Shown here piece by piece: positions 298 to 63,594 of a stretch of 64,000 bases of DNA. The notes under the pieces were generated by a model. The model ran no database searches. It saw only the letters and a program-made list of their open reading frames with translations, and was not told the DNA's origin. Made by a program: the position numbers and the translations under genes. Source of the DNA: a virus (taxonomy: Duplodnaviria > Caudoviricetes); the IMG/VR virus record IMGVR_UViG_3300032290_001460, positions 42,309 through 106,308 of that record. One strand, 5' to 3'. How positions within the stretch are numbered: position 1 is the stretch's first letter; each line of letters begins with the position of its first letter.

Positions 298-3200
298 ATG
301 AGCCAAGGAACATTTGAAGACATCCATTTTAAGGCGATGAATGGCCAATTCAATATAGATGAGGCACAAGGAATCGTTGAATGTTTCGTTGCCGCCGTAG
401 GTAACAAAGACTCCGTGGGTGACATCGTCGCATCGGGGGCATTTACAGAAAGTCTCAAGCGCCGCAAACCGCGCGTTGTATGGGGACACAACTGGAACGA
501 CCCCATCGGTAAGGTTCTAGAAATTTACGAAGTACCAGCACACGACCCGCGTCTCCCAGGAAAAATGAAGCAAGCAGGAGTGGGCGGGCTCTATGCGAAG
601 GTTCAATTCAACCTTGCAACAGAAAAAGGTCGCGAAGCATTTGCTAGCGTCGCTTTCTTTGGTGGAGACCAAGAATGGTCTATCGGCTATAAGACTCTCC
701 AAGCAAACTTTGACTCCGCCATGCAAGCAAACGTTTTGCGTGAAGTTGAACTGTACGAAGTGAGTCCAGTTCTTCATGGTGCAAATCAACTGACAGCCAC
801 AATTTCCGTCAAGAGCGACGAAGGTGAAAAGTGCCACAGTCCTGCTATGGGCGCTGGAATGCCAATGATGCCAGCAGTAATGCGTGCTTTTAAACCAGGG
901 ATTCCAGAAGGTGGCCCATCGCGCATTTCGGCAAGAATTGGCTACGACGTTTCTAGTCCTCGTGAAGATATTTTTGCAGAAGGCGAAGCACGCGAACTTA
1001 ATCGCGAAGAAATTTATAGACTTGAAGAAGAACTGATGTCACGTTCTAATAATCGTCTCAAGATTATCTCCGCAACTGAAAATATGGTCACATTCCATCG
1101 GATGCTCCCCAATGGTTCATCAACGGCTTACCGTCTCCCATACCACTACGATACGGCTGTTAGACAATACATGTTTGGCAAACCAGAGAAGATGGGACAA
1201 GGTCCTAGCCAGCCTCAACCACAAACAGTCGTTCCTATGCAGATGCCCAGTATGCCAATGTCTGTCAAGCCGAATGCCGTCAGCCCATATGCCATGGTTA
1301 ACGGTGGATACGATGGCGAAAAATCCGTTGAAGAAAGACTCCATGAAGTTATTGCTGGCTTAAAGTTGCCGCTCTTCGACGATGAAGTAGCAGAAAAATC
1401 TCAACAAGATAAAATTGAGGAAGTAGTGAATCTTCTTCAATCCTATATTGAAGAGAAGAGCGAACCCATGCGTGTCATTATGAAATGTGAACCGCATCAA
1501 GCGTTCCGTGTTAAGGAACTACTCGACCCGGTAATTGAGTATCACGGACTTCAGGCAGAAGTCAGTGAAAAGGGCGTCCATCTTTCAGGGACATTCAATG
1601 ATGAAACACTCGATGCACTATATGCGTCAGAGAAAAGTATTCAACGGATGTTCATGAAAGAGGGTGGTTGGGGAAAAGATAACGGCCCTACGGGGCCGAC
1701 CTTCGAAGTTGAAGTAAAAGCCCTCGGAGGCCGAGTTGGCCAAAGAATCGGTGGAGGCCTGAGTGCTGCACCACCAGGGATGGTTTGGGTTGACGTAACC
1801 GGAGCCATAGATGGCGATAGCGATGGAATAGTTTTTGAGGGTACGCCTATGCAGCGTCCCATTATTCCTCGTGCGATGATTCCCAAGGTGCAGGCGTCTA
1901 TACTTCAACAGACTTCCCTCCCCCGCGCTATGGAAATGGAGCGAAATAGGGTTCCTAAACCATCTGTTTCGCAAGAAGATTCCAAACCACGTTTAAATCA
2001 GGTTCCTAAAAAGAATGAATCAGATTCAGTGGTGCCTTCTAAGCCTATTCCAAAAATAGACGACACTATTCCAACACCCAGTAAGGCTCCTAAAAAAACT
2101 CAGGGGCGCAAATCAAGAAAAAGCCCTCCTACTAATCCGAATATATACGACCCGTGGGTTTATAGAAATTCAGGAACCGAGCGCATTCTTGGTAACGAAT
2201 TCAGCATCATTACGCCACTAGATGAAATTATTAACTCTGTTAGTTCTAGAAGTAAAAAATTGACTCCTAAAGAAATTATTGACAATTATGCTTATTTCCT
2301 TAATTATAGAGGCCTAGACACTCAACAAGTTTTTAAAATTTTTGAAAACCATGGTTATGTTAATACTGAAAAAGTCAACCAAACCATATCTGATGAGTTG
2401 AAATTTGCGATAGATGACATTATTGCGGCAGGCGGAAGAATTGTTTTTGCACAAAATAATCTTCTAATTAATTTGGGTGGCAATAAATTAATAATTGATT
2501 TATTAGATAAAGATAGTTATAGTAATGTTAGACAGCAGTTAAGTATGCCCTTGAAGCAATTGTATGTAAAAGAAAGAAAGACAGTAACAAATATTTCGGA
2601 CTTGTCTCCTAGGTATAATTATCTTAAGCCAGAATTGAAAAAATTAAAAGAAAAGTATGGCGATTATTTTGTTATACGCGCCCTGGATGCCGGCCATTAT
2701 TCTGCTGTTCTTTTTGACCCCATCTCTGGTGACCCCCTAAAAACTTATCAATTTAGTGGTAGTCCACGAAGTACTTCTAACCTTTTAAAAAACCTTTCTT
2801 CAGAATTTACAAATGCAGCCGTAGTTAGAAGATTTGAATCAGCAAAAATATGGAAGCCAGCGCGCGAAGTCATTGATAAAGTACCGTTGAGACCAGCAAA
2901 TGAAGGGGAAACCCCAAAATTCGGTCCGCTGAGTGGTACTTCTAAGTTGGTTCAGATTTTTTCTGAACTAGGTTTTTCGCCAGACAGTAAAGAATATCCT
3001 AATGCTCTCGTTGAATTAGAAATACATGATATTGGTGACGGAAAATTTGGTGTATATGGTGTAATCGTAGATGAAGATGGCATAGAACACCTCGTGAGCC
3101 AGGAGCAGGATGGTCTTGCAGATTCATTAGATTTTCTTCGTGCACTAGGTTCAGAATATTCTCAGTCGCAATTATCAGAAATGAGAAGTGCTCATCTAAG

Positions 3201-13563: not shown

Positions 13564-13571
13564 TATAAAAG

Positions 13572-13821: not shown

Positions 13822-13849
13822 TACAAAGCATTACAAGGAGTCTCGAACT

Positions 13850-15646: not shown

Positions 15647-15666
15647 TTCATAGTTCTATTTAGGGA

Positions 15667-39062: not shown

Positions 39063-39098
39063 CAATAATTTTACTTATTGCCAAGGAGGAGGTGTGTT

Positions 39099-40688
39099 AT
39101 GAAATACGAATATAGTTCTACTAAAAATAAACTATGGTTAAAGACTTTGCCAAGAAAAGTTAGATTACTAATGCCTACAATAGGTAAGAAATCTCTTGGT
39201 GGTTCTATTGGAAGGGCTGGAGAACCTTTTGACCCCAATGCGTTTGATGGTGATATGGATGCCTTGGTCCAAGAAGGAACCCCATGGGAGCGCCCAGCAA
39301 CACCATCTGTTCCTAGGGGTGCTCGCAATATCGTGAAGCCTTCTATTATGCCGATTGAACTAGAAGGAGTGCGTTCTGTTCAGACCCCTAGTAGTTCACG
39401 TTCAGCGCGAGGCCCCTTGAACTTACCCGACCCATTGCCGCCCCCATTAGAGAATGATGCCGTCGTTGATGAGTCTGGATTTGATTTCGTTGATTCCCTT
39501 CATGCAATTGTTGAAAGGAGCCCTAAGAAACTTGGGTTAAGAAGTCAAGAGTTACAGACGTTGAAGAAGATAAAAGATAGAGACTCAGATACAGAACTAT
39601 GGGAAGTTTCTGATTTTCTTGACAATGAGACTATTCGTTCTGAATTGAAAAAACATATCTCCGAACGCATTGGGAGTAAGTTTGCTGAGAGAGCACGCGA
39701 AGATGACGACTTTTTACAAAGTTTGCTCTTGAGTTCAATTGCCCCTACTCATGGCTTATGGTCGGATATTACTGAAGCCCTTAAAGGCGATGACATTGAG
39801 GAAAAGAGACAGAAGTTACAAAAACTTATGTCTGGCACTATGGATAAAGTTACTCCAAGTCAGAAAAGTTTTATTAAAGAGTCTATTGAGTGGCTATCTG
39901 ATAGAAGTAAGAAGAAATCTGAATCATTTGATAAAAAAATTGATGTTTTGGCAATTAATAAGGCTAGTGAATATATTAACGAGTGGGCTAATAGTTCTAA
40001 TAATTCTCCTCGCTCAATGGCTTTACAGCGCATGGCCATTCAGGAATTCGGCTTGGAAGATGGAAGTTACTATCCAGAAGATTTGTTACCTCTTTCTGGG
40101 CAGAGTCTTAACGCTCAATCTATGAAACAAAGAACAGACGAAGAAGTGGACATGAATGGGATGCTTCAACGCGAATTCCTGCGCATACAGTATGAAGAAA
40201 CTCAGAGAATGCTCAAAGAACTCAATGTTCAGTCATTGTCTGTTGCAAGAGGTATGACAGTTGGCGAGAATAGTCAACTCATAAAAGATATGAATTCCAC
40301 CAATCCTGATTGGAAAGAAAATAATGTTGGGGTAGAGAAACCTCTTACATTACGTCCGCTTTCTTCGTGGGCTACAAAATCATGGGAGGCTATGAAATTT
40401 GCGTCCCCCCTGGAAGAGGGTAACGAAAATGTTCTTGCAGTAGCAAACGTACCCGCAGAGCAAGTCTTATCCCTCTCAACAACAGGGATTGGATGTTTGC
40501 CTGAGTGGGAAGCAGTTTTAGTGGCGGCGCCGGTGAATGCCAGAATATTCAATATGCCAGAGAATATTGATGATGTTGAGAATGCGGAAGAATGGTTAAT
40601 GGACCCAGCGTCATACGAAGAAAATTCTGACTTTGACTTAGATTCACTCTACGACGACGATGACGATGACTTTGACTACGAAGACTAA
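39099..40688 (+). CDS. DxDxDG-tagged protein with a C-terminal ADP-ribosyltransferase-like domain
   Basis: AGGAGGAGG precedes the ATG at 39099 (ORF track starts at 39078). Tag: KSLGG...FDPNAFDGDMDALVQEGTPWERP. R-S-E type motifs: VARGM, LSSWAT, PEWEAVLV. Confidence 0.72.
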   Translation: MKYEYSSTKNKLWLKTLPRKVRLLMPTIGKKSLGGSIGRAGEPFDPNAFDGDMDALVQEGTPWERPATPSVPRGARNIVKPSIMPIELEGVRSVQTPSSSRSARGPLNLPDPLPPPLENDAVVDESGFDFVDSLHAIVERSPKKLGLRSQELQTLKKIKDRDSDTELWEVSDFLDNETIRSELKKHISERIGSKFAERAREDDDFLQSLLLSSIAPTHGLWSDITEALKGDDIEEKRQKLQKLMSGTMDKVTPSQKSFIKESIEWLSDRSKKKSESFDKKIDVLAINKASEYINEWANSSNNSPRSMALQRMAIQEFGLEDGSYYPEDLLPLSGQSLNAQSMKQRTDEEVDMNGMLQREFLRIQYEETQRMLKELNVQSLSVARGMTVGENSQLIKDMNSTNPDWKENNVGVEKPLTLRPLSSWATKSWEAMKFASPLEEGNENVLAVANVPAEQVLSLSTTGIGCLPEWEAVLVAAPVNARIFNMPENIDDVENAEEWLMDPASYEENSDFDLDSLYDDDDDDFDYED

Positions 40689-40928: not shown

Positions 40929-43865
40929 ATGCGCCCCCGTATACGTTCCACGAGATTCTATCTTCCTTCAACGAAAGCCCTAGGCGGCTCTATTGGTCGT
41001 CTCAATGAACCTTTTGACCCAGATGCCCTCGATGGGGATGAGGATGGCATAGTTCAGGATGGTACTCCTTGGGAGCGCCCGGGAATACCTGGAACGCCTA
41101 GTATCTCTGGTGGCAAGATGAGGGATGGGTCAAAAAGAGAGATTACTGCGTCCTCTGATATTGACAACACTGAGGAAATCGCCACGCCCAATGATTCCTC
41201 GGAACAAGTCCCAGTCTCGGATATTACCTTAGAAGATATCGTTGATGAACTTTTAGAAATTCTAACTCCCGAATTCTTAGAAGAAATAAATAAATTTGGG
41301 GAAGAATTTATGTTTGGCTCTGGTCGCAATGTTAGAAAAACAGTTCAAAACGTTGATGAGTGGCGCGAGATACAGGATGCCGAGTTAGTTACCGTTGACG
41401 TGTTCGAACCAGGGGAAGGACCGGGGGAAACTAAATACCCCATTCCAAAAGGGAAATACACCATAGGCTCACCTTCGATGATGAAGGCAGAAGAGCGAAT
41501 TAGGGATGTTGGGATGAGGGTCGTCCAAGGATTGATGAATTTTCTTTCTGGTTCTAGGGAGAATAGAAAAAAAATGCTCGAAGAGGCAAGGGGCCGTCTT
41601 GAAGAGTACAGAGAGACTCAAAGAGAAGTTACTGAAAAACTTGGGCTTGTTACCTGGGCTAGAAAATGGGAAATGCGTTATGCTGATGAAGATTCAAAAG
41701 AAAGGGGTAATTTTGCGAGACAACTTTATGACACGGCTAAAGAATTATTTGGTAATCATCCAGACTTGAGCCCGGATGCTGATTTTAATGAAATTGCAAT
41801 GACTAGGTCTGAAGATGTGAACTATATTGTCAATAAATATCTTTTAAATTTACTTCAGTCAGATGTTTTCAAGGCCATCGATGAAGAAGATGGGGAAGAA
41901 AGTAATATTTTTGTTAATCAGATAAATAGGCTGAAAAAAAATATTAAAGAATATGAAAAATCTTCTCGTGAAATACCGGGAGTAATTAAAGAGGACTTAG
42001 TGAGATTGCAACAATCACTTGATGAATCGATGGCTGTTAGGAAGAAGTTGATTAACCAATTAAATGATGTTGCCACTAAGCCCATTGACCCAATATACGA
42101 TGATGAAATCATTATAGAAGATTTGACTACTGAAAGTGGAAAAGAATTTTCTAGAATAATCAATGAAGAACTATTGCCTATTTCAAGAAAAATACTTCTA
42201 CAGTATCGAGATATAGAAGTAAAACTAGATGAAGAAAAAATGGATGATGTCAAACGTCAAACCGGCATGAGCCATATTGACGCTAGGGATTTAGGGGAAA
42301 TTATTAATTCCGGTGGCGCCGTAATTCCATCTAAAGTAAATTCGCGAGCAGTTACTGCAAATGAAATTATGGATGAAATTAGCCTTTTGCAAAACGCCAA
42401 AATTTCTGAAGTGATAAAAGATATTGAAGAAAGAATAGTAGAAACTGAACGTCCAGCACTGCTTCGTAAAATATTTCCTACAGGATATTGGAAGTATGAT
42501 TCAAAAACTAAAAAACCTGTCAGAAATGCGCGAAGAGAAGATGGCTCTCTAATTTTCGCCACTCCATTGACCGTGCTGTTTGCGGGCAAATCTGGCAATG
42601 GCGTGATAAAAGAAACTTTTCAAAAAGCATTAAAATCTTTTGAAATATCCAGCAAGGATATTGATGCTTATTTAAATTCATATCATGTATCAGATGAGAG
42701 TCGCGATAATGCTATGTCTCTTTTGGGGCGACGTACTGAAATAATTGACGAGATGCAAACAATTTTACGTGATGTTTTTGAAGATTTGGAAAAAAATTAT
42801 CCTGACTTAGCAGAGCAATATATGATGGGTGGCTTAAATGCCCTGAAAGAGATTGCTCGCAAGGTGCCAGAAAGTAGCACTAGTCAAAAATGGAATGACT
42901 ATATGCAAAAAATGGTAGAACTAAATAAGGAATTACAAAAAATTTTATCTGATTTAATAGATGTGCTTTCTCCTGAAGAAAAAGATAAATTAAAAAAATT
43001 GCGGGAAGATTTAGAGCAGGCAAAAGTTAAAAAAGGTGATTATATTCTAGAAAAAATTTCATCATTATCAGCAGAAATTGATGAATTATTGGCTGATAAG
43101 CCACTGACATTTTCTCAAGAATTTAAAAAATCTTTAATTAACATATTAGAAGAAATGGGCATATCTCCTTCAAAAGATTCTTTATTGGACGTAAGTAAGC
43201 CAACAATAGGTGATGGCTCCATGAAGACGACTGAAGCAAATGTTGAAAAATTTAAACAACATATTAGTGAAATTGTTCCCGAACCAATTATTCAGTTATT
43301 AAATCTTTTTCTAAAAAATAATCCTCATACGGTTCGTGCATTAACTGTCGATGAAGTCGGTGATAGGGCTGGCCATTGGAAGAAGGGTTCTCGGCAGATA
43401 GCAACAAATTTTGAGCAAAAAGTAAACTTGCATGAATTTATGCACATGATGTCAACTTATTTTCCGTTTGCATCAATGGCTGAGCAAGCGTTTCTCTATA
43501 ACCGCGGCTTAAGGGGCGAGAAAGGTTCTTCCGTAGAAGAGAGAATGGTTGATTTAGACTTTGAAGATGCCGTCTACTGGCAATACTCGGCGACTCTTGG
43601 TATACGACAGCCAGCACCCGGAGTTCGCGATTATAGGAGTAGTGACTATTATATAGAAGATGAATTTGATAAGAGATATACTGGGCGAATCTATCCTAGA
43701 GATGAACCAGAAGATTTTGCTACAGAGGTTCTCAGCACTGGAATCGAAGTTTTAGCAGACACCTATACCGGTACGGACTTTCCTGACTACGAACATCTTG
43801 CTTTAGTGATAGGTGTCCTAATAACTGCTGGTATCATGTCTAGGGATGGAATAGCAAAAATATGA
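40929..43865 (+). CDS. 978-aa DxDxDG-tagged protein with a helical/coiled-coil body and a C-terminal zincin-like metallopeptidase domain
   Basis: Tag: KALGG...FDPDALDGDEDGIVQDGTPWERP. HEFMH at 43431, followed by YTGRIY...TEVLSTGIE...DYEHLALVIG. Confidence 0.78.
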   Translation: MRPRIRSTRFYLPSTKALGGSIGRLNEPFDPDALDGDEDGIVQDGTPWERPGIPGTPSISGGKMRDGSKREITASSDIDNTEEIATPNDSSEQVPVSDITLEDIVDELLEILTPEFLEEINKFGEEFMFGSGRNVRKTVQNVDEWREIQDAELVTVDVFEPGEGPGETKYPIPKGKYTIGSPSMMKAEERIRDVGMRVVQGLMNFLSGSRENRKKMLEEARGRLEEYRETQREVTEKLGLVTWARKWEMRYADEDSKERGNFARQLYDTAKELFGNHPDLSPDADFNEIAMTRSEDVNYIVNKYLLNLLQSDVFKAIDEEDGEESNIFVNQINRLKKNIKEYEKSSREIPGVIKEDLVRLQQSLDESMAVRKKLINQLNDVATKPIDPIYDDEIIIEDLTTESGKEFSRIINEELLPISRKILLQYRDIEVKLDEEKMDDVKRQTGMSHIDARDLGEIINSGGAVIPSKVNSRAVTANEIMDEISLLQNAKISEVIKDIEERIVETERPALLRKIFPTGYWKYDSKTKKPVRNARREDGSLIFATPLTVLFAGKSGNGVIKETFQKALKSFEISSKDIDAYLNSYHVSDESRDNAMSLLGRRTEIIDEMQTILRDVFEDLEKNYPDLAEQYMMGGLNALKEIARKVPESSTSQKWNDYMQKMVELNKELQKILSDLIDVLSPEEKDKLKKLREDLEQAKVKKGDYILEKISSLSAEIDELLADKPLTFSQEFKKSLINILEEMGISPSKDSLLDVSKPTIGDGSMKTTEANVEKFKQHISEIVPEPIIQLLNLFLKNNPHTVRALTVDEVGDRAGHWKKGSRQIATNFEQKVNLHEFMHMMSTYFPFASMAEQAFLYNRGLRGEKGSSVEERMVDLDFEDAVYWQYSATLGIRQPAPGVRDYRSSDYYIEDEFDKRYTGRIYPRDEPEDFATEVLSTGIEVLADTYTGTDFPDYEHLALVIGVLITAGIMSRDGIAKI

Positions 43866-46800
43866 ACATGAACTGGACTTTCACAATAGGGGATAAAGAC
43901 TATTCCGCCACTTATGACAATGCTTCTTTTGTTACGGATTCTCCACTCGTTGAATACTACGTGAACAAATTAATCGATGACAGAACTGTCGTCGAAATAG
44001 GCGATGTAGGCCCAATGGCTACCGCATCCTTTGAAACCGATGCTCACGCATGGGGAACAATAACGCACGCTATCAGGAAACTAGCCAACATAGGCTCAGG
44101 CAAATATCCATTCTCACCATTAAACGGCGAAGACGAAATAGTTAAACCTGATGATAAAGAACCAAAAACCAAGTCACTAGGACCATCCCTTGGTGGCGTC
44201 AACGAACCATTTGACCCTAATGCTTTCGATGGCGACAACGACGGCATGGTGCAAGACAGCACTCAATGGGAAAGACCTGCACTACCAGGTCAAATTCCAA
44301 CAGTAGTGTCGCAAGAAGTTGCTCGGCCTGTGAGTTTAACCTTCACTGGGCCAGACCCACGAATTTTATATCCAGACATGGTAGGCAAAACTGGCTCTGC
44401 TAGATATGGGAATTCCCCATCTATACGCATAGAGCATCCTCTATCTCCAGGCAATGACATTGCTTTTGTTTCCGTTAGAGACTTAATGAAACTCCCTGGG
44501 AATATGCCAAATGATGATGGGGAGATTATTTTTGAAGAACGCGTTGAAAAATTGAGACAAGAACTTCTATCGAATGGATTCCGAAGCCCGATTGATATTG
44601 CGTACGACCCGACAACGGGCAGAGCATACGTATCAGAAGGCAACCATAGGCTTCATGCGGCATTTGCTGCAGGATATTCCTATATTCCTACAACTATTTT
44701 TCCTATGCGAATTAATGAGAATCGTCCGGCTTTAATCATTACAAAAGATTTAGATAAATGGCCGTGGAGAGAAACCGCAGATGGCGTTTACTACAATAAA
44801 AATCATATGAGGGAAAGATACTTGGAGCGAGAAGATGCTTGGCCCCCATTCGCCCCATCGGAACAAGATAAGAAACATATACCAAACATGAGAATTCACC
44901 CGTTGTGGGTTCTTCCTCAAGGAAGTATTGCAGGAGAAATTAGCGATAACGGTGTTTGGGGTCCATTGCAGCCAAATGCAATAGAGCCATTGACGGACAC
45001 TTCGCGTTCCAAGCGCGAATTCAGTTTCTTCCCTTCCCTAGGAAAAAAGAATAGGGTAAATAAGAAGGCCTTAAGCCAAGTCGGTCCTTATCCCGTTGTT
45101 GGTGATGTTGACTATCCTTCTACGACGCATAGGTTTAAAGTACATGGTTATGAAACATTATGGGCAGTACCCGAAGTTGGTGGACTCAACCCTGGAGAAA
45201 TGCTACTTATCAGAGATTATTCAGATGAAATAAAAAATTTTCATCACATTGAAGGAATATCTGATGGATTAGTCCGTATGACAAAAAGTGGACAAGTATT
45301 ATTCACAATTTTGTCACCCGAAGAATCTGTTGAATTACGTGAAAGTATCAGCACGGGGAAGCCTCTATCCGCATCCATAGAACAGCGCATATCAGACAGG
45401 TTTGTAAAAATACCTGGTGAAGATGGAACCATTGATGATGCTATTGATTTTATGTACTCGATACTTCCATCAAATATAACTAAACCTAAACAGATTTCTT
45501 TGTTTGAACAAGAGGTTATAGACGAATTCACTTATCCGGATGGGCAAAAAACAATAGTTACAGTGGATGCACATGCTAGTCACACTCAAAAATCAATGAC
45601 TTTTTGGAACGGCCATACACCTACTGAATCACTTGAAACAATGCGAACGTTCTTTCATGAACATGGCCATATGATTGACCCAATACCACCTATGTATTAC
45701 ATGGTTCATCCAACTGCTACGCAGATGCTGGGCGACTCTCCCGAAAAGCCAATGTATTTCAGCGATTCAATAGCATGGGGGGCTGCAGTGGAGCGTGATA
45801 GCCAGGTCGCTCATAGTATGATTTTAAAAAATGCATTAATTCATCCTGAAACAAGAACACGCATGAGTTTTATTTCTGGCAAGAAGGCTGTTAGTTTATA
45901 TGGCACAACTGATGTTCGGGAGGATTTTTCTGAAGCATTGGCAATGTATTTGATAGATAAATTCTATGGCAGTTTTGTTATAAATGAAGAATTGGGCACA
46001 AACGTCAGATTTGCTCAACTGTTTCCAAATAGGGCACAATTTTTTGATGACGTTATAGGAACATTGTATAGTTTTGATGAGCCTCTTGAAAATTTAGTTA
46101 AAGCGATAACTACGGGTGATTTCAATGCTATTAATAGTTCACGCTCTAGTCGTATAGTTCCTTCTAAATCAACTTTAATACCTGATGGAATATTCGATGT
46201 CGAAGAGCCACGATTTGGAAGCGTTCAAAAATTAGTAAGATATACCATGGACAACCCAGAGATAAATGTTTTTCTTTTCAAAAATGCCGCGTTAAGTCCA
46301 AGTAGTTCACAAAAAACTGAGTTTGGTATTGCCGTAAAACATTTAGTCCCAAACAATTTACTTAGTCGCGATGGACACTTTATATCGGTTGATATTTCCG
46401 AAAGTGAATTTGAAGAGTTATCAACGAGCATGGTTCTTGGTAATGGAATCCCACAGGAAATATCTAATAGAATTAATTCAAAATTAGATATTATTCGTAA
46501 TCAGATGCAAAAATTGCATGCAGTTTTACCGGATGGCGCTGTTTCAAAAATGAGTTTCATACATGCAAGTGAAAAAAGTCTATTCTTGCCATGGGTGGAT
46601 GTAGACGGCCAGGCTGTTACGCAAATTTCTAACGGCCTTGGCCAAGAACCACGCAATTTTATTGCAATTTATAGTTTAAATAGACATACCGAAAGTCATT
46701 TAAGCGATGTATTAGCGCACGAACTCGGGCATATCCTTGATAGAGATGGTGGGCGAAACTATAAAAAATCATTTGTTAATGAATCTAATAGATGGCTAAA

Positions 46801-49339
46801 AGCAAGAGCAAGTGATAAAAAAACTTTTGAAACATTTAGACAATTACTTGATGACGAAATACTTGTTCCAATTTCTAGAGATTCTGCCGTCCCAAATATA
46901 CGTAAAGGGAAAAAAGGAATAACAGAATATGGCGGCACAAGTGATAGTGAAGATTTTGCTGAAACAATAAAATTGTATATATCAGACTTGCGGAATAGTG
47001 GTTTATTCAGAAATAAAGATACTAATGAAATGGTCCGTTTTTCGGATATGTTCCCTAATCTTCATGGAATGCTTAAAGAATTTTTATCAACATACGAAAC
47101 TAATACAACCGATAAGGAAGTTATAGAAACAGTAAGCGACAGTTCTTTCTCACGGCGTTCTAGTGGGTTTTCTAACGGGACGTGGAAAATCGAAGGAAAT
47201 GTCGTGCAGGAAATTAGTAAATGGCCCGATAAAAATACACCTCAGGGTAAAAAAATCCTTGATAGTGCCGAATTCAAAACACAGGTGGCATTGCTGGATG
47301 CAATGAATATTTGGCGAGGTAGTTTTAGTGACAGTAGAATGTTGGCTCGTATTCTTGGTGGTCTCAAGCCTCCAGAGGGAACTCAATACGTCGACGACAG
47401 GTTTATGAATATAGCACGAGTGCTTGATGGTGCTCTTGAAAATGCTCCCACTATTTCTGGTCAAGTTACTATCGCCGGAAAATCCATACCACTCCCCCTG
47501 TATCGTTCGATGCGATTAACGCCAGATGTTTTCGATAGCATAAATTTTGGTGTTGGCAGCGAATTGAATTTTAGGGCTGCTTCAGCAGCATTTAGGGCCG
47601 ATGTTGCGGCACAGTACAACATTGATGAATTAACCAATTTAGGTATTCGTGGAGGAATGCCTAAGAAAATCATTGTTCAGTTGCCCAGTGATACCAAGGG
47701 GCTAGTTTTTGATGATAGAAAAACTATCGTTGCGGACCAATTTAATGAACGCCCAGTAGAAGCAATCATTCGTGGAAACTTTAGGGTCGCTTCAGTCAAA
47801 ACAATAACTATGCGCGACCCAATAACACGCAAGGATATTGAACAAGAAATTCATGTTATGGAACATATTGAACCGCCGACAAGTTCTCGTTCCACTAGAC
47901 GTAAATATCACACAACGAATACACGACTAGACATCGGCGACTTTATTGTTTCACCTCGTAAGTCTGGCAAGGAGAATGAAAGTTCTAGTCAGATAGATTT
48001 CAATGATTCTTCAGTGGTTTACGCATCTCCCAATTTTGCTGATGTGACTAGAGGAATCGAAGATTTTGCTAGTTCTGGCAGATATAAAGATAGTAACGGG
48101 CCTCTCTATATGTATCAAATTGAGGACACATCTCCAGCGAGCCTTAGTAGCGACACGTTCCCCCGTAATGAACTATCAATGACGTCATCTAGGGTGGAAC
48201 GAGGCAAGGTCACTGGCATTTATAAGGTTTCCGATGATGGCGATGCTTTCATGTTTTCTGGTGGCTCGCGTTCAAGACGTAAGGGCGCAGGAGTACCAGC
48301 ATCCAAGCCTAAAGATACACGCAGAGCAATAAGAGGCAAAATTGTTTCTGGTCGTCAGGGAATTGACGAAGATGGACTTACTCCAGAATTCATTCAAGCC
48401 ATGGAGTCAAAAATGGAAGAGATGGGTCTTTCTAGGGAAATGTTTCAAAAGACTCTTGATGATTTTTTAAAAACTTTAACTAGAACTAATATCGATATTG
48501 GTAAAAGATGGTACCCATTCGTTAATCGTCGAATGAGAGATATGGTCGAAGATTTAAATAATAGATATGGTACTTCTATAACTTTCGAGCAGGGCGCCGC
48601 CGTAATGGCAGCGTTATCTCCTTTGAGGGAAGTGAATGAAAATATCAAGGCGGCAAAATTAATTTTAAGAACTTTTGCTGCTGATGAAGATTTTGAGATA
48701 ACAGAAGAATTATTAAGTAAGTTAAAAATTTCAAAAAAAGAAGTTGAGATTTTCCTTGCTCGTGCTGGCGATGGAAAAATTAGACCTTCTGAATTTAACG
48801 ATGACGAAATAGAAATACTCATAGGTTTGAATCTTGGTTTTCTTAAAGCCGGAAGTGTTGATGGTCTTGCGAATATTAAAAAATCAATTTTTATTTTGAG
48901 AGATAAAAATTCAATAGATGATGTGCTTAAAGGGCCCAAAGTCCGTTCTTTTTATTCTAATATCGTAGACCCAAATGGAACTAGAGTGACGATTGATACA
49001 TGGATGTATAAAATGATGGTTCCTCCAGATGTAAAAATATTATATAAAGGGCAAGAATTAACACTTGCCGAACATTTGAACATAAAGGGACCCGACGGCA
49101 AGAAAGTAAATAACGTTCAAGCGATGTTCCAAGCAACGCCACAAAGCAAAAAATTGGGTGGACAAATTGGTTTATACCCCATATTTGCTGAATTGATAAG
49201 AAATGCAGCAATAAAATATAATATTCCTCCCTCTGCTCTTCAGGCAGCACTTTGGGAAAGGTTCAGGATGCAACTTTCTAATTATCAGCCAACTGATTGG
49301 GATGAAGTTGCTGGACTTTTTGATTTGGATGTAGAATAA
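43862..49339 (+). CDS. 1825-aa polyvalent protein: ParB/Srx-like domain, two lethal-factor-like zincins, ADP-ribosyltransferase-like domain, Arr-like domain, C-terminal glycosylase-like helical domain
   Basis: Tag at 44171-44280. VSEGNHRLHAA at ~44630. HEHGH at 45656 and HELGH at 46718. LYRSM...PVEAIIRG at ~47500-47775. YHTTNTRLDIGD...VVYASP at ~47905. AALSP/GPKVRSFYSNI/VTIDTW/LQAALW at 48600-49256. Confidence 0.85.
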   Translation: MNMNWTFTIGDKDYSATYDNASFVTDSPLVEYYVNKLIDDRTVVEIGDVGPMATASFETDAHAWGTITHAIRKLANIGSGKYPFSPLNGEDEIVKPDDKEPKTKSLGPSLGGVNEPFDPNAFDGDNDGMVQDSTQWERPALPGQIPTVVSQEVARPVSLTFTGPDPRILYPDMVGKTGSARYGNSPSIRIEHPLSPGNDIAFVSVRDLMKLPGNMPNDDGEIIFEERVEKLRQELLSNGFRSPIDIAYDPTTGRAYVSEGNHRLHAAFAAGYSYIPTTIFPMRINENRPALIITKDLDKWPWRETADGVYYNKNHMRERYLEREDAWPPFAPSEQDKKHIPNMRIHPLWVLPQGSIAGEISDNGVWGPLQPNAIEPLTDTSRSKREFSFFPSLGKKNRVNKKALSQVGPYPVVGDVDYPSTTHRFKVHGYETLWAVPEVGGLNPGEMLLIRDYSDEIKNFHHIEGISDGLVRMTKSGQVLFTILSPEESVELRESISTGKPLSASIEQRISDRFVKIPGEDGTIDDAIDFMYSILPSNITKPKQISLFEQEVIDEFTYPDGQKTIVTVDAHASHTQKSMTFWNGHTPTESLETMRTFFHEHGHMIDPIPPMYYMVHPTATQMLGDSPEKPMYFSDSIAWGAAVERDSQVAHSMILKNALIHPETRTRMSFISGKKAVSLYGTTDVREDFSEALAMYLIDKFYGSFVINEELGTNVRFAQLFPNRAQFFDDVIGTLYSFDEPLENLVKAITTGDFNAINSSRSSRIVPSKSTLIPDGIFDVEEPRFGSVQKLVRYTMDNPEINVFLFKNAALSPSSSQKTEFGIAVKHLVPNNLLSRDGHFISVDISESEFEELSTSMVLGNGIPQEISNRINSKLDIIRNQMQKLHAVLPDGAVSKMSFIHASEKSLFLPWVDVDGQAVTQISNGLGQEPRNFIAIYSLNRHTESHLSDVLAHELGHILDRDGGRNYKKSFVNESNRWLKARASDKKTFETFRQLLDDEILVPISRDSAVPNIRKGKKGITEYGGTSDSEDFAETIKLYISDLRNSGLFRNKDTNEMVRFSDMFPNLHGMLKEFLSTYETNTTDKEVIETVSDSSFSRRSSGFSNGTWKIEGNVVQEISKWPDKNTPQGKKILDSAEFKTQVALLDAMNIWRGSFSDSRMLARILGGLKPPEGTQYVDDRFMNIARVLDGALENAPTISGQVTIAGKSIPLPLYRSMRLTPDVFDSINFGVGSELNFRAASAAFRADVAAQYNIDELTNLGIRGGMPKKIIVQLPSDTKGLVFDDRKTIVADQFNERPVEAIIRGNFRVASVKTITMRDPITRKDIEQEIHVMEHIEPPTSSRSTRRKYHTTNTRLDIGDFIVSPRKSGKENESSSQIDFNDSSVVYASPNFADVTRGIEDFASSGRYKDSNGPLYMYQIEDTSPASLSSDTFPRNELSMTSSRVERGKVTGIYKVSDDGDAFMFSGGSRSRRKGAGVPASKPKDTRRAIRGKIVSGRQGIDEDGLTPEFIQAMESKMEEMGLSREMFQKTLDDFLKTLTRTNIDIGKRWYPFVNRRMRDMVEDLNNRYGTSITFEQGAAVMAALSPLREVNENIKAAKLILRTFAADEDFEITEELLSKLKISKKEVEIFLARAGDGKIRPSEFNDDEIEILIGLNLGFLKAGSVDGLANIKKSIFILRDKNSIDDVLKGPKVRSFYSNIVDPNGTRVTIDTWMYKMMVPPDVKILYKGQELTLAEHLNIKGPDGKKVNNVQAMFQATPQSKKLGGQIGLYPIFAELIRNAAIKYNIPPSALQAALWERFRMQLSNYQPTDWDEVAGLFDLDVE

Positions 49340-49343
49340 TATA

Positions 49344-49523
49344 ATGATTATGAGAAAAATAACAAAAACCAATTCAAATGCAGAAACTCCCGCAGAATTG
49401 AATATTGTTGGCGGTTTGACTGATGATGAGTTGTCGAAAAAGTATGGCTTTAATCAGGAGAGGTCGCGCAGTATTGCTGAGGCTCTTGGTATTCCATACG
49501 ACAACGAGGAGTCTGGATTTTGA
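49344..49523 (+). CDS. Small hypothetical protein (59 aa), not in the ORF track
   Basis: Translated by hand: MIMRKITKTNSNAETPAELNIVGGLTDDELSKKYGFNQERSRSIAEALGIPYDNEESGF. TGATG overlap with the next ORF. Confidence 0.55.
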   Translation: MIMRKITKTNSNAETPAELNIVGGLTDDELSKKYGFNQERSRSIAEALGIPYDNEESGF

Positions 49524-51691: not shown

Positions 51692-53011
51692 ATGTCAGAA
51701 GACACTTCACGTCTGAACGAACTGCAAAGCGCACTCCGTTCAAAGATGTCCGATAATAAGGCCATCGCAGACTCATTCAAGATTCAAGACGGCACCGTCG
51801 TTGTATCAACCGACCAAAAGACAGCGTTTGACAAGAACATGCGCGACATCAAGGAAATCAAGAGTCTCATCGAGGGCCTTGAATCATTCCGCGAAGTCGA
51901 TGCATGGAGTAATCAGGCTTCAGGTCAGTCAGTTGGCGCATCGGCTGCTGCTAGCGCCGCTGGTGCTTCGGCACAGCGCACCCAATTCAAGTCAATCGGT
52001 GATGAGTTCGTCGGTTCGGCTGAATTCAAGTCACTTAACGGTGGCCGCAACGGCGCAAACATGCCTACCCCATTCACGACCAATGCAGTTCTCACCGGCT
52101 CATACAGCCAGAAGGACCTGTACTCAGGATTGCCGACCGGAAACCCCGGTACCTTCGGCAACATCCAGCGTGACCCGATTGTTATTCCTCCAATGCGCAC
52201 CAAGCGTGTTCGTGACTTGTTCCCCGTTCGTACAACGAACGCTCAAGTTATCGAATACTTCCGCATGACGGGATTCACCAACAACGCTGCAGCAGTTGCA
52301 CAGCGCAACAATGACAACACCAACTTCGGCATCAAGCCGCAGTCGTCCTTCACCTTTGTGGGCGAGCAGGCTCCGGTCCGCACCATCGCTCACTGGGAAG
52401 CCGCACACCGTAACGTTCTCGCTGACGAACCGCAATTGCGTTCAATCATCGACAACGAATTGATGTACGGTCTCCGTTTGCAAGAAGATGCACAGATTCT
52501 TGCTGGTGACGGTACTGGCGAAAACCTTCAGGGTGTTCTCACCACAACGGGTATCCAGACATACGACTGGTCGGACGGCGCACATTTGCCTGTCGCAGAT
52601 ACTAAGGTCGACGCAATTCGTCGTGCCGCAACCCTGTCGTTCTTGGCTTACTACGAGCCAACCGGCGTGGTTCTCCACCCGAATGACTGGGAAGACATGG
52701 AACTCGCTAAGGACGACAATGGCCAGTACCTCGTTGCTGTGTCGGTCGCCCTTGGTGGAGAGCCCAAGTTGTGGCGTATCCCTGTCGTCGAAACCCCAGC
52801 AATGACAGAAGGCACCGCTCTTGTCGGTGCATTCGGTACCGGAGCACAGTTGTACGACCGTGAGCAGGCCAGCATTAGAATCAGCGAACAGCACAGCGAC
52901 TTCTTCGTCCGTAACGCCATTGTGATTCTTGCCGAACAGCGTTTGGCTCTTGCTGTCAAGCGTCCGGAAGCATTCGTCAAGGTCAACTTCGACGCAGCAC
53001 CAACAGCCTGA
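51692..53011 (+). CDS. Major capsid protein, HK97 fold, with an N-terminal coiled-coil delta-like domain
   Basis: Motifs VRDLFP, VRTIAHW, LRSIIDNELMYGLRLQEDAQILAGDGTGENLQG, VVLHPNDW...KDDNGQYL and FVRNAIVILAEQRLALAVKRPEAFV. Strong codon bias. Confidence 0.97.
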   Translation: MSEDTSRLNELQSALRSKMSDNKAIADSFKIQDGTVVVSTDQKTAFDKNMRDIKEIKSLIEGLESFREVDAWSNQASGQSVGASAAASAAGASAQRTQFKSIGDEFVGSAEFKSLNGGRNGANMPTPFTTNAVLTGSYSQKDLYSGLPTGNPGTFGNIQRDPIVIPPMRTKRVRDLFPVRTTNAQVIEYFRMTGFTNNAAAVAQRNNDNTNFGIKPQSSFTFVGEQAPVRTIAHWEAAHRNVLADEPQLRSIIDNELMYGLRLQEDAQILAGDGTGENLQGVLTTTGIQTYDWSDGAHLPVADTKVDAIRRAATLSFLAYYEPTGVVLHPNDWEDMELAKDDNGQYLVAVSVALGGEPKLWRIPVVETPAMTEGTALVGAFGTGAQLYDREQASIRISEQHSDFFVRNAIVILAEQRLALAVKRPEAFVKVNFDAAPTA

Positions 53012-59757: not shown

Positions 59758-60240
59758 TTAGTCATTGGTCGTTTTATATTTATTTCTTCTGCGTATATTA
59801 ATTTTATTTCTATTGTTTTTATGATACTCATTACTTGCTTTATTAGAACAATATTTGCACACCCTATGTCCACTGCTCCTATGATAAGTATTTTCAATGG
59901 AGTATTCGCGTGAACATGTTCCACAATGTGTTTTTACTTGATTTCGATGTCTTTTTTTCCCAATCATGTCATCGACATTTCCTTGATTATCAGAAACAAA
60001 TAAATGACTTGGATTTACACATGATGGATTATCGCATGAATGGCAAACAAAAATATCACTGAATATTTCCCCATTAAGTAATGACCATGAGATACGAGAT
60101 GCCGTGACTGTCTTACCATTTAATTTAAAATTACCGTATCCACGAGAATTTTTTCCAGCAATCCATTCCCAGCATTCACTTTCTGTTTTTTTATCTACTT
60201 TTGCCCAAAATCTTTTTAGTTGTTCATCTGTAAGTTTCAT
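59758..60240 (-). CDS. HNH homing endonuclease-like protein
   Basis: RFWAKV...CWEW...GYGNF...VCHSCDNPSCVNPSHLF...N, plus a C-terminal THC...RVCKYC zinc finger. Confidence 0.9.
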   Translation of the reverse strand: MKLTDEQLKRFWAKVDKKTESECWEWIAGKNSRGYGNFKLNGKTVTASRISWSLLNGEIFSDIFVCHSCDNPSCVNPSHLFVSDNQGNVDDMIGKKRHRNQVKTHCGTCSREYSIENTYHRSSGHRVCKYCSNKASNEYHKNNRNKINIRRRNKYKTTND

Positions 60241-60731
60241 TTGATTTCTTTAGTGTCCGTGTGGAAACTTTCTGTTGTGTGAATTTTAATTTTTTTAAAA
60301 ATTCTACGTTTTCTTTCAGCATCACGTTTGCAAGACCTACAAACACGAGTAATCCCGCGGCCTTTTCGATCCCGAAGAAATGTATTTTCTTGATTAAACT
60401 CATGCCCATTTTTACAATGTGTTTTTGACTGTTCAAAATGACGCATTTCACGAACGGATTGCTTCATATTGTCACTGCTTGTTCCGGCGTAAAGGTGATT
60501 TGGGTTTATGCAGGGAGGGTTATTGCAGGTGTGGCAAATCATGAGTCCGTCAGGGATTTCACCTTTGTGCATGATGTAACTGATTCTGTGTGTTGATTTG
60601 GCAATTTTATTCACACCGAACTGCCCGTAACCTCTAGTGCTTATCGCTCCGGTCCATTCCCAGCATCCATTGTCCGTTTCTTTATTTACTTTTGCCCAAA
60701 AGCGTTTTAATTGTTCTTCTGCAAGTTCCAT
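60237..60731 (-). CDS. HNH homing endonuclease-like protein
   Basis: RFWAKV...CWEW...GYGQF...HRISY...ICHTCNNPPCINPNHL...THCKNGHEF...CRSC. Start chosen to match the adjacent paralog (ORF track starts at 60779). Confidence 0.9.
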   Translation of the reverse strand: MELAEEQLKRFWAKVNKETDNGCWEWTGAISTRGYGQFGVNKIAKSTHRISYIMHKGEIPDGLMICHTCNNPPCINPNHLYAGTSSDNMKQSVREMRHFEQSKTHCKNGHEFNQENTFLRDRKGRGITRVCRSCKRDAERKRRIFKKIKIHTTESFHTDTKEIK

Positions 60732-60760
60732 GTTTCCCTTTATGGTGTTTTTGTAAAATG

Positions 60761-63023: not shown

Positions 63024-63050
63024 AATATAAATATCTAAACAAGTTTTCTT

Positions 63051-63539: not shown

Positions 63540-63594
63540 ATATAAATTCCGTTTCGTAACGTGATGGCAATGTGAGTTCAAGTATAATTGAAAG

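Follow-up and report, generated by a model that had tools for sequence, protein, structure and literature searches.

The window analysed here is a stretch of 64,000 nucleotides from an IMG/VR virus, taken from a record of 106 kb. Between a putative portal gene and an HK97 capsid gene, it includes a run of giant ORFs on the + strand. The first of these ORFs (4421 aa) begins with an S78 protease domain. One of the others, P0001 (hereafter the polyprotein), has a start that is overlapped by 4 nt by the stop of the 978-aa ORF located upstream. The features that define the locus are the following:

361..819, + strand: N-terminal S78 prohead serine protease domain of the 4421-aa ORF (Pfam PF04586, E 2.7e-10)
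43862..49339, + strand: whole ORF P0001, six-module polyprotein (ATG start, 1825 aa, stop-free frame)
49344..49523, + strand: small conserved gene of 59 aa, directly 3' of P0001, 45% identical to its positional counterpart in L123
51692..53011, + strand: HK97-type major capsid protein of 439 aa (Pfam PF05065, E 1e-45)

The polyprotein has seven full-length relatives (75-92% identity) and the synteny around it is preserved in L123. The 59-aa gene may belong to the polyprotein system. In the neighboring 2740-aa ORF there are modules resembling Zeta toxin and PI3/4 kinase. Further zincins are encoded by this ORF and by a 1435-aa ORF, the latter having a paralogue of the second zincin module of the polyprotein.

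The original prediction described the polyprotein as a tag followed by six enzyme-like domains separated by a single type of linker. All the motifs that it quoted (the tag, EGNHR, five linkers and the C-terminal motifs), together with two HExxH, are located in the 1825-aa ORF, which is organized as follows, always on the + strand:

43862..44170, +: leader, aa 1-103, closing with T-K immediately ahead of S-L-G
44171..44278, +: address tag, aa 104-139, K-S-L-G-P-S-L-G...EPFDPNAFDGDNDGMVQDSTQWERPA
44459..44731, +: putative ParB/Srx-like core, about aa 200-290, with an invariant E-G-N-H-R (aa 259-263)
44999..45016, +: spacer 1, TSRSKR, aa 380-385 (motif scan and alignment of relatives, as for all spacers)
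45017..46135, +: zincin module 1, aa 386-758, with HEHGH (aa 599-603) and EDFSE (aa 687-691)
46136..46153, +: spacer 2, SSRSSR, aa 759-764
46154..47140, +: zincin module 2, aa 765-1093, with HELGH (aa 953-957) and EDFAE (aa 1030-1034)
47141..47158, +: spacer 3, variant SSFSRR, aa 1094-1099
47159..47881, +: ART-like module, aa 1100-1340 (language-model features; motifs by eye)
47882..47899, +: spacer 4, SSRSTR, aa 1341-1346
47900..48262, +: Arr-like small ART module, aa 1347-1467 (hhalign, Atlas)
48263..48280, +: spacer 5, GSRSRR, aa 1468-1473
48368..49297, +: DUF7178 core with a predicted Ogg2-like HhH-GPD fold, aa 1503-1812 (Pfam PF23802, AF2, VIA)
48938-48940, +: K1693, family-invariant
48995-48997, +: D1712, family-invariant

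Since about 100 residues come before it, the tag of the polyprotein is internal and not N-terminal. The leader has no family match in Pfam and PHROG profile searches, and one relative (P0008) lacks it, beginning about 15 aa upstream of the tag. The tag is common to unrelated cargo proteins: the same one is found in the 978-, 536-, 539- and 1435-aa ORFs and a variant in the 4421- and 2740-aa ORFs. Furthermore, 232 IMG/VR stretches match the tag patterns, and ORFs of more than 1000 aa from other IMG/VR contigs carry the tag at their N-terminus. The closest relatives of the DUF7178 module are single-module proteins from other phages that also have the same address tag at their N-termini. The tag or its DGDGDG variant lies within the first 70 residues in 9 of the 14 best DUF7178 matches, the nearest relatives being about 400-1000 aa long.

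The five S-[R/F]-S-x-R spacers of the polyprotein start at aa 381, 760, 1095, 1342 and 1469, and all sit in stretches rich in disorder-promoting residues. Strict SRSxR is present in four copies, versus 0.05 in shuffled sequences (maximum of 2 in 5000). The head module as a whole, with its 16 ORFs totalling 18,649 aa, has 20 copies for 0.45 expected (maximum of 5 in 2000). These copies are confined to tag-bearing head-module ORFs, and none was detected in ORFs of at least 120 aa from the remaining 42 kb of the 106-kb record. The motif is carried, for instance, by the 536- and 539-aa proteins, each of which has one downstream segment. Their Ser residues are encoded by all six possible codons and their Arg residues by five, drawn from both codon families, so that selection bears on the peptide and not on a DNA repeat. 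All five sites are retained in the eight sequences compared (the polyprotein and its seven relatives), and only one of the 21 spacer copies departs from the fixed S, R, S and R. Site 3 is SSRSQR in five of the eight sequences and SSFSRR, in which the first Arg is lost, in the three others, including the polyprotein. DUF7178-bearing multi-domain proteins of other lineages are devoid of SRSxR, and the spacer is therefore a local invention.

The major capsid protein (439 aa) contains zero S-[RF]-S-x-R. Its maturation point, read by eye, is likely to be F-K/S-I-G-D-E-F, and this putative site looks like the prefix K-[SA]-[LI]-G found in the tags rather than like the spacer. Since this protein is the one certain substrate of an HK97-type prohead protease, the spacers may have a different reader or may stay uncut. 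The S78 domain of the 4421-aa ORF is one candidate reader of the spacers.

Modules start or end near the spacers at four of the five junctions, and the polyprotein is modular at these junctions. The zincin paralogue modules end 23-31 aa upstream of their spacers. The alignment with Arr starts 2 residues past spacer 4 and stops about 27 aa short of spacer 5. In the AF2 model of the DUF7178 domain, spacer 5 is followed by 28 disordered residues and then by a region folded at pLDDT >90; alignments of homologues start 13-37 residues past this spacer. A 1200-aa AF2 model aimed at all boundaries was unusable (pLDDT 30.6). The paralogy of modules 2 and 3, the alignment of module 5, right from its beginning, with entire stand-alone Arr proteins and the folded module 6 support the proposed layout, the six segments behaving as modules of their own.

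The identities originally proposed for the domains are supported to uneven degrees. Pfam confirms the family of the last module (DUF7178), whereas the ParB hits of the first one stay below threshold and the ART assignment of the fourth one comes from language-model features. The core of module 1 gives PHROG ParB-like matches at E 0.002 and 0.006. Pfam ParB_N (PF02195) is found below threshold in six of eight relatives (best E 0.0017), and P0008 has a precomputed PF02195 match. These sub-threshold hits suggest that module 1 may be ParB/Srx-like. The two zincin modules are collinear tandem paralogues (23% identity over 246 aa, E 1e-12) whose HExxH and downstream EDFxE motifs are aligned and invariant in the eight sequences. 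The second one matches Pfam Peptidase_Mx1 at E 5e-4 (19.9 bits vs a cut-off of 25.6 bits), and this family is matched in all eight relatives (best E 8e-6). It also matches M48 (E 0.02) and a PHROG metalloprotease (E 0.0017). The first one is tied to zincins solely via its paralogy to the second.

The fourth module shows, by eye, the motifs W-R-G (R1152), F-M-N-I-A (aa 1181-1185) and G-S-E-L-N-F (E1234). Their spacing of 29 and 53 residues is that of the PF03496 family, S-T-S being replaced by N-I-A. This module has no Pfam match, and hhalign against eight real PF03496 domains reached no significance (E 0.13). Its Atlas features reach 0.96 (177/256 shared) and 13 of 30 matches belong to ADPrib_exo_Tox clusters, language-model features that suggest an R-S-E-type ART. 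The fifth module aligns by hhalign with six real Arr-ms proteins (E 5e-4, probability 32%, 80 columns, 29% identity), the aligned blocks being Y-H-x-T..L.I-G-D, v-Y-x-S, Y-x-Y-x-v-E-x-T-x-P and F-P-x-N. Eleven of 30 Atlas matches are Arr-ms clusters at about 0.90, and Pfam PF12120 gives no match at E up to 1. The tail of this module before spacer 5 resembles, by eye only, the C-terminal strand of Arr. In size the module corresponds to a whole Arr protein (PF12120), with which it has four blocks of conserved residues in common, among them the His of Y-H-G-T. However, it is embedded in a phage polyprotein, and rifampin is unlikely to be its target.

The sixth module belongs to DUF7178 (Pfam PF23802, E 4e-17): the whole protein scores 63.4 bits and the isolated domain 70.4 bits, against a cut-off of 27 bits. 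This family has 420 cluster representatives in 1.8 billion proteins and is rare in cells (1/401 Pseudomonadota genomes and 0/14 control genomes). Among relatives, DUF7178 is fused to MuF, RNase_T, HipA/PI3K-like kinase, NUDIX (one member) and GNAT domains. Its structural matches in BFVD belong to proteins whose names are 'ART-PolyVal' or 'large polyvalent protein associated'. The rarity in cells, the fusions and these names speak for DUF7178 being a cargo domain.

The C-terminal domain does contain AALSP, KVRSFYSNI, VTIDTW and LQAALW, from which an HhH-GPD glycosylase had been guessed and a fold search advised. The fold part of this guess is supported by a structure search with an AF2 model of the domain (pLDDT 91), whereas the profile comparisons did not bear it out. 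In a wide VIA search, the top 24 rows were all HhH-GPD enzymes (best Z 11.1). The same was true of the top 47 rows in a second look (best Z 11.3, 187 aa, rmsd 3.7; next Z 4.1), and unrelated rows start at Z about 4. The best matches are Tm1821 and MjOgg (Z 11.1-11.3). The DNA-bound Ogg2 3knt_D aligns over 184 of 206 residues, i.e. about 90% of the target, at Z 11.1. The top eight Foldseek matches are HhH-GPD proteins too, but weak ones (E 0.04-0.5). By contrast, none of the 77 DUF7178 members is matched by Pfam PF00730 (HhH-GPD), even with E allowed up to 1, nor is anything in the virus record. We describe the C-terminal module, at the fold level, as a predicted HhH-GPD domain for which Ogg2 is the best type.

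K1693 and D1712 are invariant in the 77 DUF7178 sequences, 19 residues apart (18 in endonuclease III). According to DSSP of the model, K1693 is at the start of helix 218-228 and D1712 precedes helix 239-245 (domain numbering). In the hhalign alignments that came out best, they face K120 and D138 of E. coli Nth at non-significant values (E 0.08 and 0.04), a pairing that was not reproduced with a mixed Nth+MutY profile. Furthermore, the family consensus V-T-I-D-T-H parallels I-A-V-D-T-H of Nth, and the HhH hairpin is shortened (L-K-G-P-K vs L-P-G-V-G-x-K). The Lys-Asp pair being placed as in endonuclease III, the modelled module would most likely act on host DNA as a bifunctional N-glycosylase/AP lyase.

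On balance, we consider that P0001 is probably a polyvalent cargo protein of the HK97-type phage head, which would be loaded, cut at its spacers and delivered; we infer its packaging, cleavage and delivery as well as its activities. The tag (aa 104-139) would bring the polyprotein into the prohead. An endopeptidase would recognize the five S-R-S-x-R spacers, freeing up to six modules in the capsid or after ejection, and the freed pieces would enter the host together with the DNA. These would be a ParB/Srx-like nuclease or NTPase, two zincin peptidases, an R-S-E-type ART, an Arr-like ART and an Ogg2-like HhH-GPD enzyme.

The polyprotein could also be packaged and delivered uncut, the spacers being conserved inter-domain connectors, such as Ser phosphorylation sites for kinase-like modules of the neighboring polyproteins or Arg/Ser patches binding packaged DNA. 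Some polyvalent proteins (N4 vRNAP, ArdC, TraC1) are indeed transferred full length (PMC5512222). The absence of SRSxR from the capsid protein, the candidate kinases for the spacer Ser among the modules of the 2740-aa neighbor (Zeta-toxin-like, PI3/4-kinase-like) and the Arg to Phe change tolerated at site 3 in three of the eight sequences point in the same direction. However, holding four residues constant in 20 of 21 copies while the codons vary freely is a far tighter constraint than a flexible connector requires, and SRSxR is also present in the 536- and 539-aa proteins that have a single downstream segment. Moreover, a 200-kDa multi-domain chain would need to unfold for tail passage, and we regard uncut delivery as unlikely. 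In place of the S78 prohead protease, the cargo zincins might do the cutting, or a host protease acting once the cargo is ejected. The spacers have an R-x-x-R-type character, and such sites fit many basic-specific endopeptidases. Two zincin modules with invariant HExxH and EDFxE are carried by the polyprotein itself, others by the 2740- and 1435-aa ORFs, and the capsid protein, once again, is devoid of SRSxR. Iyer et al. also predicted autoprocessing of polyvalent proteins by metallopeptidase domains (PMC5512222). Nevertheless, the established precedent is that of prohead proteases with a short motif common to all head substrates (T4 gp21, phiKZ/SPN3US gp245; PMC5694885, PMC10052503). Here, the S78 protease is itself fused to a spacer-punctuated chain, and a basic P1 followed by Ser (R/S in S-R-S) would match K/S of the putative capsid site. 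Cleavage by zincins or by a host protease is thus rather improbable in our view.

As for the sixth module, it may not be a DNA glycosylase but an enzyme using the HhH-GPD scaffold on nucleosides or nucleotides like Qng1/DUF2419, a hydrolase of queuine salvage, an enzyme transferring groups to modified bases like gp46 of phage PaMx11, or a mere DNA binder. Qng1 provides the second- and fourth-best VIA matches, with the longest alignments (Z 8.9 and 8.0, 219-220 residues), and PaMx11 gp46 is found at Z 4.4. The shortened L-K-G-P-K hairpin, the NUDIX fusion of one member and the two NAD-using modules of the polyprotein are also in line with such functions. However, the best matches, one of them bound to DNA (3knt_D), are Ogg2 glycosylase/lyases aligned over about 90% of the target. 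The invariant Lys and Asp share spacing and secondary-structure elements with the nucleophile and catalytic Asp of endonuclease III, and the consensus parallel with Nth (V-T-I-D-T-H, I-A-V-D-T-H) also speaks for a glycosylase. We therefore hold a non-glycosylase function to be doubtful and keep an Ogg2-like glycosylase/lyase as the preferred reading for this cargo module.

We also propose, tentatively, a two-part peptide code for HK97-type capsids. One DxDxDG tag per chain would load the proteins, and S-R-S-x-R would let one protease free any number of concatenated enzymes, including an injected Ogg2-like DUF7178 glycosylase/lyase of a hitherto uncharacterised family attacking host DNA. With such a code, single-module genes of the 'tag + enzyme' type, which relatives possess, could thus fuse into operon-like polyproteins. 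If the spacers are real cutting sites, the polyprotein is a compact test object for the loading and release of several enzymes from a single chain by phages, with one tag, five identical sites and six products of predictable size. It would also supply polyvalent proteins, a class that is purely computational to date, with a defined processing code, and offer a portable tag-plus-linker system to load foreign proteins into HK97-type shells. Moreover, the Ogg2-like fold and the Lys-Asp pair provide DUF7178, a widespread phage domain, with a biochemical hypothesis, that of an injected DNA glycosylase/lyase.

With the Ogg2 enzymes (Tm1821, 3n0u; M. jannaschii Ogg, 3knt/3fhf; S. solfataricus Ogg, 3fhg), the modelled DUF7178 domain shares a two-lobed helical fold (Z 10.3-11.3, 183-187 of about 207 residues). 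With both these enzymes and endonuclease III, it would share a Lys opening the second hairpin helix and an Asp about 19 residues further that caps the next helix. It differs from them by its low identity (about 12-14%), about 100 extra residues and its shortened hairpin, and by being found in phages and mobile elements and not in housekeeping repair.

The prohead proteases of T4 and phiKZ are T4-type enzymes (S77) that cleave after Glu, whereas the protease here is of the S78 type and the spacer motif is basic. Their capsid proteins carry the cleavage motif and their cargos are mostly single proteins; here, the capsid protein lacks SRSxR and the cargo is a chain of six enzymes. The T4 internal proteins (IPs), which have a capsid-targeting sequence and are processed by gp21, and the phiKZ/SPN3US inner-body and ejection proteins (gp175/gp245; PMC5694885, PMC10052503, PMC9026906) nevertheless resemble the proposed system by their N-proximal targeting peptide, repeated short cleavage motif and DNA-coupled ejection. 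MuF polymorphic toxins (Jamet et al. 2017, PMC5576092) likewise attach a variable C-terminal effector to a carrier associated with the head, and one DUF7178 relative (P0015) has a sub-threshold N-terminal Mu-F match (25.8 bits vs a cut-off of 29.6). However, the polyprotein has no MuF domain and carries six effectors instead of one, the role of carrier being presumably played by the DxDxDG tag.

The closest likeness is with the polyvalent proteins, whose concept and predicted processing were described by Iyer, Burroughs, Anand, de Souza and Aravind in 2017 (PMC5512222). These proteins, from phages and conjugative elements, have 2-15 unrelated domains per polypeptide and a head/packaging neighborhood. 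The polyprotein has six modules of at least five kinds and is encoded, in this IMG/VR virus, downstream of the S78-protease-fused ORF and upstream of the HK97 capsid gene. In both cases, many unrelated effectors are gathered in one chain encoded among head and packaging genes, the repertoire includes zincin-, ART- and ParB/Srx-like domains, and the products are predicted to be packaged, processed and injected. However, the assemblin-like protease is C-terminal in the polyvalent proteins of that paper, whereas here the protease is N-terminal in a neighboring polyprotein. The main text of PMC5512222 contains neither the word 'linker' nor the name of any glycosylase or HhH-GPD domain. P0001, whose modules are split by one fixed pentapeptide behind one shared tag, can hence be viewed as a variant of the Iyer-Aravind polyvalent proteins.

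The polyprotein P0001 is encoded within an unbroken series of + strand ORFs that includes giants of 4421, 3362, 2740 and 1825 aa, the last being P0001 itself. The window covers the 3'-terminal 64 kb of an IMG/VR virus record of 106 kb, whose completeness is 71% (CheckV). The features close to the polyprotein gene are the following:

43862-49339, + strand: frame of P0001, open over 1825 codons
49344-49523, + strand: slightly acidic 59-aa ORF, starting 5 nt past the polyprotein stop
51692-53011: HK97-type major capsid gene, downstream of the giant ORFs

Furthermore, an S78 prohead serine protease domain begins the first giant ORF (Pfam) and a 695-aa ORF located immediately upstream of the window likely encodes the portal. 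Therefore, the setting of P0001 is a phage head module enlarged by about 50 kb of giant genes. The 59-aa gene is conserved (45% identity) in a relative whose polyprotein shares 76% identity with P0001, and its product could act as a partner of the last module or inhibit it. Within the DUF7178 part of P0001, no nested + strand ORF reaches 35 aa. Two further small ORFs follow the 59-aa gene before 49874. Two HNH endonucleases are encoded in an opposite-strand block (59758-63632, - strand), along with a methyltransferase fragment and a family-2 glycosyltransferase that contains TPR repeats.

Searches of isolate phages gave no match, either with the P0001 gene (blastn) or with its tag, ParB-like, ART-like and DUF7178 parts (tblastn). 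The nearest cultured phages by capsid protein are the Gordonia phage ChisanaKitsune and its kin (47-48% identity), and no tag was found in their examined head-region proteins. In these phages (7882-25507 of the ChisanaKitsune record, L152), the region from the portal gene to the protease and capsid genes includes separate untagged genes for an RNA ligase, a VIP2-like ART and a 969-aa 'HNH endonuclease'. The same head-cargo region may exist there in a simpler state.

All the motifs listed in the original prediction were found in the P0001 sequence and in the listed order; the anatomy that it proposed omitted about 100 residues that precede the tag. The spacers are enriched beyond chance. P0001 contains five S-[R/F]-S-x-R copies versus 0.05 strict copies expected from shuffles. 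The 16 head-module ORFs contain 20 strict copies versus 0.45 expected (maximum of five in 2000 shuffles), and no SRSxR occurs in the ORFs (120 aa or more) of the remaining 42 kb of the record. The consensus of 21 copies is [D/S]-S-S-R-S-x-R, preceded by acidic or neutral residues and followed by basic residues or Pro. These copies use all six Ser codons and Arg codons of both families. Since codons vary from one copy to another, the conserved unit of the spacer is a peptide, and an origin as a DNA-level repeat or recombination site is excluded.

All five spacers are kept in seven full-length relatives (75-92% identity); these are so close that their alignment with P0001 displays no conservation dips at the spacers. 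Site 3 (47141-47158) reads SSFSRR in the window and in two of these relatives (P0002 and P0008) and SSRSQR in the five others. Being common to three sequences, SSFSRR is a variant that lost the first Arg. If this Arg is required for cutting, zincin 2 would not be separated from the ART module in this phage. Another feature common to P0002 and P0008 is an Arr module that starts with Q-I-F-H-T, which suggests recombination between lineages. Beyond the full-length relatives, 34 multi-domain relatives are devoid of the spacer, which rules it out as a general trait of DUF7178 polyproteins. A separate viral contig (IMGVR_UViG_3300021093_002702, L159:3-10931, - strand) encodes an ORF of more than 3643 aa in which the same tag starts at about aa 60; SRSxR is present twice (aa 115 and 1050, versus 0.26 expected), and F-D-P-D-E comes directly after the second copy. 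Therefore, the spacer may be older than this clade, at low density.

The claim that separate modules lie between the linkers was borne out at junctions 2 to 5; for junction 1, the support comes from disorder maxima only, a kind of support that all five junctions have, since each spacer lies at a local peak in disorder-promoting residues. Segment 2 (aa 386-758) is a collinear paralogue of segment 3 (aa 765-1093); over 246 residues, the two are 23% identical (E 1e-12), with the HExxH motif and a Y-G-x-T...E-D-F-x-E block aligned. Both paralogue alignments stop 23-31 residues short of the next spacer; what was duplicated is thus the unit between spacers. Segment 5 (127 aa) can be aligned with six real Arr proteins from bacterial genomes (E 5e-4, 29% identity, 80 columns), with four conserved blocks in order. 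This alignment begins at K-Y-H-T-T, two residues past spacer 4. In stand-alone Arr proteins, the Y-H-G-T block is found 8-30 residues from their own N-terminus, and therefore spacer 4 sits at the expected start point of a free protein. For the C-terminal segment, the AF2 model reaches a pLDDT of 91 from residue 29 onward, after a disordered basic stretch, and homologues start aligning 13-37 residues past spacer 5. An AF2 model of aa 280-1479, which spans all five junctions, was unusable (alignment of eight close relatives, mean pLDDT 30.6), and a word-index search for homologues of aa 1101-1474 among shorter proteins gave no match.

The evidence for the identity of modules 1 to 5 varies. The ParB/Srx-like module, in which E-G-N-H-R is invariant, has sub-threshold matches to Pfam ParB_N in six of the eight relatives and weak matches to PHROG ParB. 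The zincin motifs HEHGH and HELGH are invariant, and Peptidase_Mx1 matches all eight relatives (best E 8e-6), being below the cut-off in P0001 itself. The ART assignment of module 4 is that of the protein-language-model atlas only (score 0.96), in which 13 of the 30 nearest clusters are ADPrib_exo_Tox; profile comparison with eight real ART domains was not significant. W-R-G, F-M-N-I-A and S-E-L-N-F are spaced, as judged by eye, like the R, S-T-S and E motifs of ADPrib_exo_Tox, with a degenerate S-T-S. For the Arr-like part, tblastn against plasmids gave chance-level matches only.

The C-terminus of P0001 corresponds to Pfam DUF7178 (E 4e-17), and an exhaustive HMMER search with this domain retrieved 420 cluster representatives. 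Among the 77 stand-alone members aligned, whose consensus includes G-x-K-V-R-S-F-Y-N-N-I...V-T-I-D-T-H-M, the columns K219, D238, Q320 and W324 are invariant (K1693, D1712, Q1794 and W1798 of P0001). No member has a Pfam HhH-GPD match, and PDB sequence searches with P0001, with an eight-sequence profile and with a 77-sequence DUF7178 profile gave nothing meaningful. The last motifs had been compared to the catalytic Asp region of HhH-GPD glycosylases; structure upholds the fold, and the K/D pair aligns with that of Nth, though not significantly. The AF2 model obtained from the 77-member alignment (pLDDT 91, pTM 0.88) gave weak Foldseek scores against PDB (E 0.04-0.5), with the top eight matches all being HhH-GPD glycosylases. 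An independent search of 48,161 representative chains placed Tm1821 Ogg first (Z 11.1, 188 aa, rmsd 3.8). The next 23 rows all belong to the HhH-GPD superfamily, including AGOG, MagIII, Mag1, EndoIII, OGG1, MutY, NTHL1, ROS1, AlkA, MBD4 and the Qng1 queuine-salvage hydrolase; phage PaMx11 gp46 comes next at Z 4.4 and unrelated folds start from Z ~4.3. In a second look at structures, all 47 top rows were again from this superfamily before a fall to Z 4.1, and Ogg2 enzymes were best (3n0u, Z 11.3; DNA-bound 3knt, 11.1; 3fhf, 10.6; 3fhg, 10.3), covering about 90% of the target. Helical proteins attain such Z values by chance with this tool, but a truly shared fold is favoured by the homogeneity of the list and by the gap that follows it. 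These searches demonstrate that the domain, as modelled, has an HhH-GPD fold.

The Schiff-base nucleophile of endonuclease III is K120 and its catalytic Asp is D138; both residues were confirmed in the real E. coli nth gene. The best hhalign alignments, obtained with Nth alone and with a profile of Nth relatives (E 0.08 and 0.04), pair K219 with K120, D238 with D138 and V-T-I-D-T-H with I-A-V-D-T-H. A mixed Nth and MutY profile gave a different, non-significant alignment. According to DSSP, K219 of the model is at the start of helix 218-228, past a short hairpin that follows helix 208-214, and D238 is directly ahead of helix 239-245; this predicted placement is the HhH, loop and Asp arrangement. 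Catalytic equivalence of the two pairs is likely, and DUF7178 is a predicted DNA glycosylase-like enzyme.

DUF7178 is not a housekeeping repair enzyme, since it is rare in cells, fused to effector domains and found in polyvalent-type proteins. Among 401 sampled Pseudomonadota genomes, one contained it; it was not detected in the 14 control genomes, all of which have PF00730. The lone match (L130, G128:C12:265210-268698) lies within an open frame of 3606 aa, which presumably encodes a polyvalent protein belonging to a prophage or conjugative element. The fusion partners of DUF7178 include RNase_T, a HipA/PI3K-like kinase, NUDIX and GNAT, with Mu-F below the Pfam cut-off, and the BFVD proteins that contain it bear the names 'ART-PolyVal' and 'large polyvalent protein associated'.

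The tag is present in nine of the 14 best DUF7178 matches (nearest relatives, E below 1e-30). Some of them have, in their first 40 residues, the same tag, E-P-[FY]-x-x-D-A-x-D-x-D-x-D-G-x-V-Q-E-G-T-x-W-E-R-P, and others a variant, A-L-G-x-P-I-G...D-G-D-G-D-G-K-C...P-C-P-P-G, which in the relative P0014 is immediately ahead of an internal DUF7178 domain. In another phage, a 399-aa gene made of the variant tag and DUF7178 (P0009) comes right after an ORF of at least 1657 aa (L131:1-6170), with a 4-nt overlap. Hence, the DUF7178 module is there a separate gene behind a giant gene. This contig is actinophage-like, with WhiB and ThyX genes. Back-translated tag patterns hit 232 places in IMG/VR, and the exact degenerate DNA pattern was found in ten contigs, each time near the start of a large ORF; a word-index search with the tag alone (aa 100-145) gave no candidates. 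Being carried by unrelated cargo, N-proximal and once per chain, the tag has the profile of an address signal. From gene position only, we infer that this address is the capsid.

The 100-residue leader of P0001 (window 43862-44170) is missing from the relative P0008 (1728 aa), whose sequence starts 15 residues ahead of the tag. The start of P0008, M-R-H-R-I-H-S-T-R-F-Y-L-P-S-T-K-A-L-G-G, is nearly identical to the N-terminus of the neighbouring 978-aa ORF (window 40929-41000), and therefore leaders appear to be exchanged between cargo genes. K-[SA]-[LI]-G-x-x-[IL]-G precedes every tag, in P0001 (44165-44182, K-S-L-G-P-S) and in the ORFs 39078-40688, 40929-43865 and 30585-38807. The capsid protein has F-K-S-I-G-D-E-F (gene ~51980-52010) at the end of its coiled-coil N-terminal part. 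Its probable maturation point, ...T-Q-F-K/S-I-G-D-E-F, which we take to be equivalent to HK97 K103/S104, is similar to the K-[SA]-[LI]-G found ahead of the tags. S78 may actually cut at this motif and thereby remove the leaders. Alternatively, the motif may be a peptide that binds inside the capsid, given its likeness to encapsulin cargo peptides of the L-x-I-G-S-L type.

In the proposed mechanism, the tag would load the P0001 chain into the prohead, an endopeptidase would cut it at the spacers and the six pieces would exit with the DNA. Overall, we consider putative cleavage at the spacers slightly more probable than its absence. The weak point is which protease would act and whether cutting occurs at all; the capsid protein contains no SRSxR. 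S78 could accept, in the capsid and spacer contexts alike, a basic residue with Ser after it. Alternatively, S78 could trim the leaders only, the spacers being read by the zincin modules or by a host enzyme; processing by metallopeptidase modules was proposed by Iyer et al. (PMC5512222). It is also possible that the spacers are uncut.

The prohead proteases of T4 and phiKZ/SPN3US belong to another clan, and their acidic cargo motif is also carried by the capsid protein, whereas the capsid protein of the P0001 phage is devoid of SRSxR. Prohead-protease motifs in head cargo are known from T4 and phiKZ/SPN3US (PMC5694885, PMC10052503). The main text of the polyvalent-protein paper does not contain the word 'linker' and has a single mention of the prohead; neither a glycosylase nor an HhH-GPD module is named in it (PMC5512222). 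P0001 displays the testable properties by which polyvalent proteins are recognized in that paper.
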